From a virus, in the UHGV virus genome UHGV-1366990: a DNA stretch of 64,000 bases, one strand, 5' to 3'. Of the stretch, positions 35,202-36,437 are shown piece after piece. The notes under the pieces are model-generated. The model was not told the DNA's origin. It was given only the letters and a program-made list of their open reading frames with translations, and made no database searches. Position 1 is the stretch's first letter, and every line of letters starts with the position of its first letter. The position numbers and the translations under genes were made by a program.

Positions 35202-36437
35202 TCAGCGTTTCAAGAGTGTCATGAGGTTGACGCTGCTGGACTTCGGCTTGTCCTCAACCTTGCGCACAGGCATCTTCAGGTTTGTGTAGACCTCGGACGG
35301 TTCCCAGCGCGTACCCTTTTGCAGGTGCCAGATATGTAGAGGAACACCAGTCTCAAAGAACACAGGCATCTTCCACTTCTGGACGCCTGGAACGTGCCCT
35401 GTAGGAGCCTTTTCACATAACAGGGTATCTGGCAGCCAGAGCGAACGGGCTTCCCAGAGCGCTGCGCAGGAGTATTCAGGCCAGACGCGTTCCATGTAGT
35501 CTATCTCATCCCAGGTACGCTCTGCGTCCCACCCGATGTAACGGGTATTCTTCAGTCGGAAGAATTTCTTCAGCCAACAAGCACCGGAGGTTTCAAAGTT
35601 CAGGCGGTTGATGAACGTCAGGTGCCCGAACTCAGCCACACAATCCTGGAACGCCTGCTCAAGGTCGGCCTCAAGGATGTCACACTCTTCATCCGTGATA
35701 GGACAACCGTTGATCTTTTTCTTCCCGTGTTTAGTCACCCAATCGTCACGGTTGGACAAGAACGCCGCGCCATTACGGTTGGACTCGCTTCCATCACGAT
35801 CACGCAGCATGAAGCCAGGGACGTCAATGGTGTATTCGTTCCCGAAGACCATGTTCAGGGCTTCCAGGAAGTTCCAGGCGCTCAGGCGACCGAAGTATTT
35901 CCAGGACATCGCCGTGTCCCACAGCTGGGTGAATTGTTCTGTCTTATCGATGCACACCAACATCCCACGGAAAGCGTCATATTGAGTACGGCCAGCCAGC
36001 CAGTCAATATAGGACTGAACACACGGGATCATCTTGGACTTGCGGTAGCGACAGTCGGTATCGAATCGCATGCGATCAAAGTTCAGATTATACCAATCAG
36101 AGAAGCGCTGCATCTCTTCTTTGGACTGGGGTGGTACAGGGAACTCACTGTAGATCGTCCACGGCCCGACAGCGTTATAGCAACAACCCCACAGGAATGC
36201 CATCCAGATCTTGCGCTCGACTTTCTGTTCGAGACTGATGCCTTCAGTGACTTCGATCGCATAGTCCATCAGACGCATCTGCTGGTTGTGCTCTTCTGTG
36301 TAGGACAGCGCCTCCACCCAAGCCTTGAGCAGGTACATACGATTCTCAGGCTTGCGATAATCAACAGCCAGGTCAATCGGGTACTTCCATTCAGTCGGAG
36401 GCTTATAGCCCGTCGGCATTTTAGATAAATGATGCAT
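35202..36437 (-). CDS. large conserved-looking protein of unknown function (candidate nucleotide/DNA-modification enzyme)
   Basis: 411 aa, SD GAGGAAG; no motif I can assign. Sits directly downstream of the GIY-YIG/kinase ORF. Confidence 0.65.
   Translation of the reverse strand: MHHLSKMPTGYKPPTEWKYPIDLAVDYRKPENRMYLLKAWVEALSYTEEHNQQMRLMDYAIEVTEGISLEQKVERKIWMAFLWGCCYNAVGPWTIYSEFPVPPQSKEEMQRFSDWYNLNFDRMRFDTDCRYRKSKMIPCVQSYIDWLAGRTQYDAFRGMLVCIDKTEQFTQLWDTAMSWKYFGRLSAWNFLEALNMVFGNEYTIDVPGFMLRDRDGSESNRNGAAFLSNRDDWVTKHGKKKINGCPITDEECDILEADLEQAFQDCVAEFGHLTFINRLNFETSGACWLKKFFRLKNTRYIGWDAERTWDEIDYMERVWPEYSCAALWEARSLWLPDTLLCEKAPTGHVPGVQKWKMPVFFETGVPLHIWHLQKGTRWEPSEVYTNLKMPVRKVEDKPKSSSVNLMTLLKR

Follow-up and report, generated by a model that had tools for sequence, protein, structure and literature searches.

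The gene at positions 35202-36437 of the window, by which we mean the whole 64-kb stretch of virus genome UHGV-1366990 analysed here (64,000 nucleotides), almost certainly encodes the serine:DNA transferase (amino acid:DNA transferase, AADT) of an Ackermannviridae phage, being the orthologue of gp247 of phage ViI (Vi01) and using the same mechanism as in ViI. The evidence gathered here shows family membership, orthology, fold and the conservation of catalytic residues. The gene is of an already known, biochemically characterised type and nothing new is asked of the enzyme: the result is mainly an annotation fix, which turns a "hypothetical protein" into the serine:DNA transferase of the pathway to 5-(2-aminoethoxy)methyl-dU (5-NeOmdU).

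The gene and its transcription unit

The ORF listing of the window contains a 411-codon ORF with an ATG start at exactly 35202-36437, so that the large, well-supported ORF of the original prediction is confirmed; it lies on the minus strand, which that prediction had left unstated. The Shine-Dalgarno sequence GAGGAAG cited in its support is indeed present on the coding strand, where it can be read directly 6 nt upstream of the ATG (start region, GAAGAGGAAGCGAAAGATG). The AV101 annotation offers Met7 as an alternative start; we prefer Met1, which has the Shine-Dalgarno sequence 6 nt upstream and is common to ViI. The gene belongs to a tightly packed minus-strand run with 4- to 17-nt overlaps, in the order DNA polymerase, 116-aa ORF, NT5C-like, DUF7254, GIY-YIG/kinase, 67-aa, 125-aa, AADT and 55-aa ORF:

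40085-43084, minus strand: DNA polymerase gene, a single uninterrupted 999-codon ORF, as in ViI
40059-40088, minus strand: sigma-70-like sequence TTGATT-18-TATAAT, matching the promoter consensus at 10/12 positions in a consensus-only scan and lying downstream of the DNA polymerase gene
38905-39684, minus strand: NT5C-like 5'(3')-deoxyribonucleotidase of the HAD superfamily (Pfam PF06941, E=1e-8; same annotation in RPN242 and LIMEstone1)
38590-38895, minus strand: DUF7254 gene, a member of the run
36995-38593, minus strand: GIY-YIG/kinase fused ORF, 532 aa, with a Seg-like homing endonuclease (residues 3-227) and a type 2 5-hmdU DNA kinase (residues 236-531); phrog_314, phrog_15209
36795-36998, minus strand: 67-aa conserved small protein, counterpart of ViI orf244 (phrog_4514; AV101 and LIMEstone1 annotations; synteny with ViI)
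36421-36798, minus strand: 125-aa conserved protein, counterpart of ViI orf245 (phrog_4163 matches residues 46-167 of a longer ORF; a 378-bp gene is annotated in RPN242 and AV101)
36444-36450, minus strand: Shine-Dalgarno sequence GAGGAAG of the AADT gene
35202-36437, minus strand: AADT gene, 411 aa, amino acid:DNA transferase / aGPT-Pplase clade 2, orthologue of the ViI gp247 serine:DNA transferase
35577-35594, minus strand: codons of the catalytic motif E282-T283-S-G-A-C287 (family motif E-T-x3-C), with the general acid/metal ligand Glu, the Thr and the nucleophilic Cys
34998-35165, minus strand: 55-aa small protein, counterpart of ViI orf248 and last gene of the unit (phrog_3879; "putative membrane protein" in AV101)
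34937-34972, minus strand: intrinsic-terminator-like hairpin, a 16-bp stem followed by a T-run (CTTTTT), directly after the 55-aa gene (consensus scan only)

The AADT gene had been placed directly downstream of the kinase in the same operon. The shared strand and gene run agree with this, and the two genes do appear to share an operon; "directly" does not hold, since two small conserved ORFs (36795-36998 and 36421-36798) intervene. The stop of the 125-aa gene overlaps the AADT start by 17 nt. Its product has a putative signal peptide according to the LIMEstone1 annotation, and relatives annotate the 67-aa protein as a membrane protein that has two TM segments. These two genes always stand between kinase and AADT in ViI, LIMEstone1, RPN242 and AV101. 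The hairpin at 34937-34972 probably ends the transcription unit that holds the kinase and AADT genes, and the sigma-70-like match at 40059-40088 is a possible start for it, on weak evidence.

A second hairpin separates the AADT stop codon from the 55-aa gene (35170-35196, minus strand). It is a 10-bp perfect hairpin, ATATCCTCGC-CTATAAA-GCGAGGATAT, its 3' arm includes GAGGA, the Shine-Dalgarno sequence that precedes the ATG of the 55-aa gene by 7 nt, and its RNA fold reaches -19.8 kcal/mol (z=-6.5 against shuffles). It could occlude the ribosome-binding site of the 55-aa gene, or serve in RNA processing or stability. As for the polymerase gene at the other end of the run, its LIMEstone1 counterpart has been described as split by intron/homing-endonuclease insertions (2012 LIMEstone1 paper), and the DNA polymerase annotation of RPN242 covers just a 1629-bp piece, as against the intact 999-codon ORF found here.

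Family membership and orthology

The 411-aa protein matches Pfam PF18724, "Amino acid:DNA transferase" (ADDT), with E=7e-60 and 203 bits against a cut-off of 26.2, its residues 49-292 aligning with positions 2-228 of the 232-position profile. This family is the former aGPT-Pplase clade 2; the comparison with aGPT-Pplases that had been proposed as a check thus identifies the protein as a clade-2 aGPT-Pplase, now AADT. With the Pfam match and a catalytic E-T-x3-C motif in hand, the description "no recognisable motif" has to be abandoned. PHROG 3271 also matches the protein over its full length, in an entry that carries no function label.

Orthology with ViI gp247 (YP_004327568) is supported by 89% identity and 95% similarity over 411/411 residues without gaps. 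Conserved columns were defined in a 29-sequence alignment of the ViI-like set (A1), which reaches down to 39% identity; its 49 invariant and 27 near-invariant columns (76 together) are untouched by the 45 substitutions that separate the protein from gp247. The two proteins share their length, their Pfam family and their catalytic Glu and Cys, and the genes share their place: both sit between orf245 and orf248 or their counterparts, downstream of a type-2 5-hmdU DNA kinase. Indeed, the gene order is collinear with ViI orf236-orf252 (pol, orf237, NT5C, DUF7254, kinase, orf244, orf245, gp247, orf248 ... orf251, orf252), and a gp226-type PLP decarboxylase partner is also present in the window. What differs is the kinase: ViI has a stand-alone 304-aa protein, the window another allele joined to a GIY-YIG endonuclease.

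A megablast search with the AADT gene returned 278 phage records, all at 80% coverage or more, with Escherichia phage YX22 (98.1%), AV101 (96.7%) and Shigella phage Ag3 (91.5%) as the best matches. By organism name the hosts are Salmonella, Klebsiella, Escherichia, Dickeya, Serratia, Shigella and others, and every record that we opened among these matches belongs to the Ackermannviridae (Aglimvirinae, Agtrevirus, Limestonevirus, Kuttervirus). An exhaustive search with the family profile added breadth: 331 cluster representatives matched at E<=1e-3, of which 63 reached E<=1e-30. The ORF is real, far beyond chance, and the window is from an Ackermannviridae phage.

The original prediction proposed that the protein performs the transferase step after the kinase, alongside the PLP enzyme. 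The PF18724 match and the identity to gp247, whose activity has been reconstituted with purified protein (PMC8989533), bear this out; the accompanying label "pyrophosphorylase-type" does not fit an AADT, which uses monophosphorylated 5-PmdU and a covalent mechanism through a bond from Cys to C6. Nor can the protein be called unassigned: the name AADT is already in databases, the RPN242 annotation reads [quoted passage not shown] and the orthologue appears as aGPT-Pplase2 in the SW16-7 paper (PMC10458263). In most GenBank relatives the gene is annotated as "hypothetical protein".

Fold, active site and choice of co-substrate

The glycine-specific enzymes of the family are remote in sequence. 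PaMx11 gp46 (PUGT; PDB 8z2m/8z2n) and M6 gp51 are glycine:DNA transferases with 11-15% identity to the protein, and neither phmmer nor hmmsearch sees them: when all PDB sequences were searched with the protein (phmmer) and with the 29-sequence profile (hmmsearch), nothing meaningful was returned and gp46 was not reached, because this crystallised relative is too divergent for sequence methods. The link to its crystal structure therefore goes through a predicted model and a bridged alignment. An AlphaFold2 model built from the 29-sequence alignment has a mean pLDDT of 90.9 and a pTM of 0.88, with only residues 390-403 disordered. Foldseek against the PDB gave one real match for this model, 8z2n, at probability 1.00 and TM 0.61 normalised to the target, with all other PDB matches at TM ~0.1 each. 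The protein is thus predicted to have the all-alpha, two-helix-bundle (glycosylase-like) fold of PUGT, and the structural check suggested at the outset points to the expected function and to no unrelated one.

The active site can be placed in the same way. In the crystal structure of gp46 with DNA and glycine, Cys247 is the nucleophile and Glu243 and Thr244 are metal ligands (PMC11472151). These three residues (E243/T244/C247) align with E282/T283/C287 in a MAFFT alignment of 165 family members, which took in gp46, ViI gp247 and divergent representatives from the profile search, and they do so in hhalign too; gp46 is shorter (291 aa against 411 aa) and the motif here has one extra residue between Thr and Cys. 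The catalytic Cys is found in 161/165 and the Glu in 157/165 family sequences, and the motif is invariant in A1. In both M6 gp51 and ViI gp247 the Cys and the neighbouring Glu are essential, Cys->Ala or Glu->Ala killing activity (PMC8989533). Elsewhere in the 165-member alignment, gp46 Y51 aligns with Y87, and E92 with D128 (Asp in 161/165).

Which nucleophile the enzyme takes is a separate matter. The co-substrate varies within the AADT family (PMC8989533, Table 1): gp109 of Delftia phage PhiW-14, for example, is a putrescine:DNA transferase of the same Pfam clade, a polyamine rather than an amino acid being its nucleophile, and by its description in the same table it resembles our protein as an aGPT-Pplase2 acting after a 5-hmdU DNA kinase. 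An AADT that used glycine, putrescine or another nucleophile, and so made a hypermodified thymidine other than 5-NeOmdU, would be in keeping with this variation; 45 residues do differ from gp247, the serine-pocket residues of the clade are so far putative, and the partner kinase is an unusual allele, 47% identical to ViI gp243. We nevertheless consider such a change very improbable. The 89% identity is to a serine enzyme and leaves every conserved column unchanged, and the dedicated decarboxylase gp226 is 91% conserved. The pocket itself argues in the same direction: the glycine binders of gp46, D24/W146/K150 (PMC11472151), correspond to N51/L185/N189 here (165-member alignment; same register in hhalign), a replacement such as would be expected for a clade with another co-substrate, and these three residues are the same as in ViI gp247, all lying outside the 45 differences, with L185 and N189 invariant in A1. 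Finally, the 301-Da base is also known from a ViI-like Vibrio phage (PMC5889632).

Two further readings carry next to no weight against a serine:DNA transferase. One is a helix-hairpin-helix DNA glycosylase/lyase, which would perform base excision without group transfer. Close structural or sequence similarity to glycosylases was not found: identity to EndoIII, AlkA/Mag1, OGG/AGOG and MutY, and to the DUF2419 queuine-salvage protein, is 3-13%, and these glycosylases catalyse at C1', unlike an AADT, in which Cys attacks C6 of the base and N-glycosidic cleavage is not expected. Equally improbable is a decaying or inactive relic, with modification stopping at 5-hmdU or 5-PmdU, given an intact ORF with a good Shine-Dalgarno sequence, the retention of all invariant family residues, the gene's occurrence at 80% coverage or more in 278 phage genomes, and intact partner genes.

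Partner genes in the window

A 5-hmdU DNA kinase lies three genes upstream of the AADT gene on the same strand, which is the kinase association of the family; the kinase domain of 36995-38593 matches Pfam PF18747 (HMUD2) with E=4e-156. Four other genes cited as neighbours in the original prediction were all recovered. The HAD nucleotidase at 38905-39684 is the NT5C-like enzyme listed above, a candidate for the dTMP-depleting enzyme of the pre-replicative branch of the pathway. The PLP enzyme requires more comment:

45249-46442, minus strand: PLP-dependent decarboxylase, orthologue of ViI gp226 (91% identity to gp226; K65 aligned with the proposed aldimine Lys K92)

Its match to Pfam PALP is weak (31.4 bits, below the 35-bit cut-off), but its identity to the characterised gp226 supports the assignment; the longest ORF at this position gives 397 aa, where the ViI annotation has 424 aa. 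Since the PALP score is below the gathering threshold and PHROGs lists the protein as of unknown function, automated annotation would miss it. The MazG-like protein at 22220-22801 is called from PHROGs ("MazG-like pyrophosphatase", E=2e-35), Pfam giving no match, and the dCMP deaminase given at 13301-13807 is recognised by its Pfam domain (E=4e-16; ORF 13301-13810). Pfam scans of 20 further ORFs in the window gave no additional modification enzymes.

Other ViI pathway genes encode a dUMP hydroxymethylase (thyA, orf66), a second kinase (gp67) and an aGPT-Pplase1 (gp160). A tblastn search of the 64-kb window with ViI gp67, thyA, dnk, orf63, gp160 and orf161 found no counterparts. Judging from the collinearity with ViI, the gp67-thyA cluster is to be expected a few kb past the left end of the window, and gp160 lies at a great distance; the absence of thyA from the window therefore says nothing on the whole genome.

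Beyond the PLP gene, an ORF-poor stretch (47538-48472, minus strand) contains three tRNA genes, Ser-GCT, Asn-GTT and Met-CAT, according to ARAGORN. Its counterpart is the cluster of tRNAs found at the start of the annotated AV101 genome; a tRNA-Tyr is also listed there, one that ARAGORN did not call in the stretch.

The proposed reaction pathway

The chemistry attributed to the AADT comes from the literature on ViI, M6 and PaMx11. In ViI, CBA120, CBA6 and Vibrio phage 1.255.O about 40% of T is replaced by 5-NeOmdU (301 Da), and lysates containing gp67, gp160, gp226, gp243 and gp247 rebuild this base on 5-hmdU DNA (PMC5889632); the LC-MS evidence concerns Kuttervirus phages and one Vibrio phage, not Aglimvirinae. 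With purified proteins, gp67 and gp243 act as 5-hmdU DNA kinases that yield 5-PmdU, gp247 joins free L-serine through its side-chain oxygen to 5-PmdU DNA, forming O-seryl-thymidine (O-SerT), and gp226 is the PLP-dependent decarboxylase that converts O-seryl-thymidine to 5-NeOmdU (PMC8989533). Trapping experiments on M6 gp51, with borohydride or beta-mercaptoethanol, speak for both a Cys-C6 adduct and an exocyclic C5 methylene (PMC8989533), and the structure of gp46 with DNA and glycine likewise favours the Cys-C6 mechanism (PMC11472151). A review reports the pathway genes as conserved across Ackermannviridae (PMC11721090).

From orthology with ViI we infer both the steps of the pathway and the presence of 5-NeOmdU in this phage. 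The DNA would be replicated with 5-hydroxymethyl-dU instead of T, and the kinase encoded at 36995-38593 would then phosphorylate a fraction of the 5-hmdU in the polymer to 5-PmdU, the substrate of the AADT. The AADT would flip the 5-PmdU base into the cleft that separates its two helical bundles, where Cys287 would add to C6 of the pyrimidine; departure of the phosphate, helped by the Glu282/Thr283 site, would leave an exocyclic C5 methylene. Attack on this methylene by the side-chain hydroxyl of free L-serine would give O-seryl-thymidine and release the cysteine, and the PLP enzyme (45249-46442) would finally decarboxylate the product to 5-NeOmdU, which would hinder host nucleases.

This type of activation is not confined to AADTs: thymidylate synthase/dUMP hydroxymethylase and the C5-pyrimidine methyltransferases also add an active-site thiolate to C6, which activates C5 for reaction through an exocyclic methylene (PMC8989533). 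The likeness stops at the chemistry, however: the folds are unrelated, there is no homology, and these enzymes depend on folate or SAM, whereas an AADT combines displacement of phosphate with addition of a free amino acid on polymeric DNA.

If the AADT is what we propose, 5-NeOmdU would be expected on a substantial fraction of the thymidines of this phage. The modification bears on restriction digestion and on resistance to host nucleases, as two publications indicate (PMC6449724; PMC11721090), and it may also affect sequencing chemistry.

A fused endonuclease-kinase ORF next to the transferase gene

The neighbouring ORF at 36995-38593 carries the kinase and a GIY-YIG homing endonuclease in one 532-codon frame. 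In RPN242 and AV101, by comparison, a separate SegD-like gene overlaps the kinase gene by 8 nt, and the kinase is 82-85% identical to ViI gp243; the kinase part of the fused ORF is 47% identical to ViI gp243 (47-50% to the ViI/RPN242/AV101 type), and its endonuclease part shares 27% identity over 91 residues with the SegD of RPN242 and AV101. An identical junction and an intact single ORF are found in LIMEstone1 (F-LimXI), pSal-SNUABM-02, UTK0004 and fGh-Ecl02, making five phages with that of the window.

Nucleotide identities around the fusion form a mosaic. RPN242 and AV101, the nearest relatives in the flanks, match the window there at 93-100% but in the kinase at ~65%, and their endonuclease gene cannot be aligned with that of the window. 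With the Kuttervirus UTK0004 identity is 66-79% in the flanks but 95.7% in the endonuclease, 91.9% in the kinase and 94.6% in the next small gene (67-aa). To judge from these comparisons, this looks like the trace of a homing-endonuclease cassette that takes the neighbouring kinase marker along from one genus to another. It is conceivable, though unlikely, that the 532-aa protein is a genuine bifunctional endonuclease-kinase, linking homing, or the exclusion of related phages in the same cell, with the first committed step of hypermodification. Such an enzyme might shift phosphorylation, and with it serinylation, to other thymidines. The transferase is a conventional one; the kinase partner on which it depends in this lineage appears to be horizontally mobile.

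In the 2012 LIMEstone1 paper, F-LimXI is entered as a free-standing GIY-YIG endonuclease and nothing more. Within the fused ORF, an internal ATG (M227, at 37913-37915, minus strand) is preceded by GAGGA 10 nt upstream, and a stand-alone kinase could also be produced from it.
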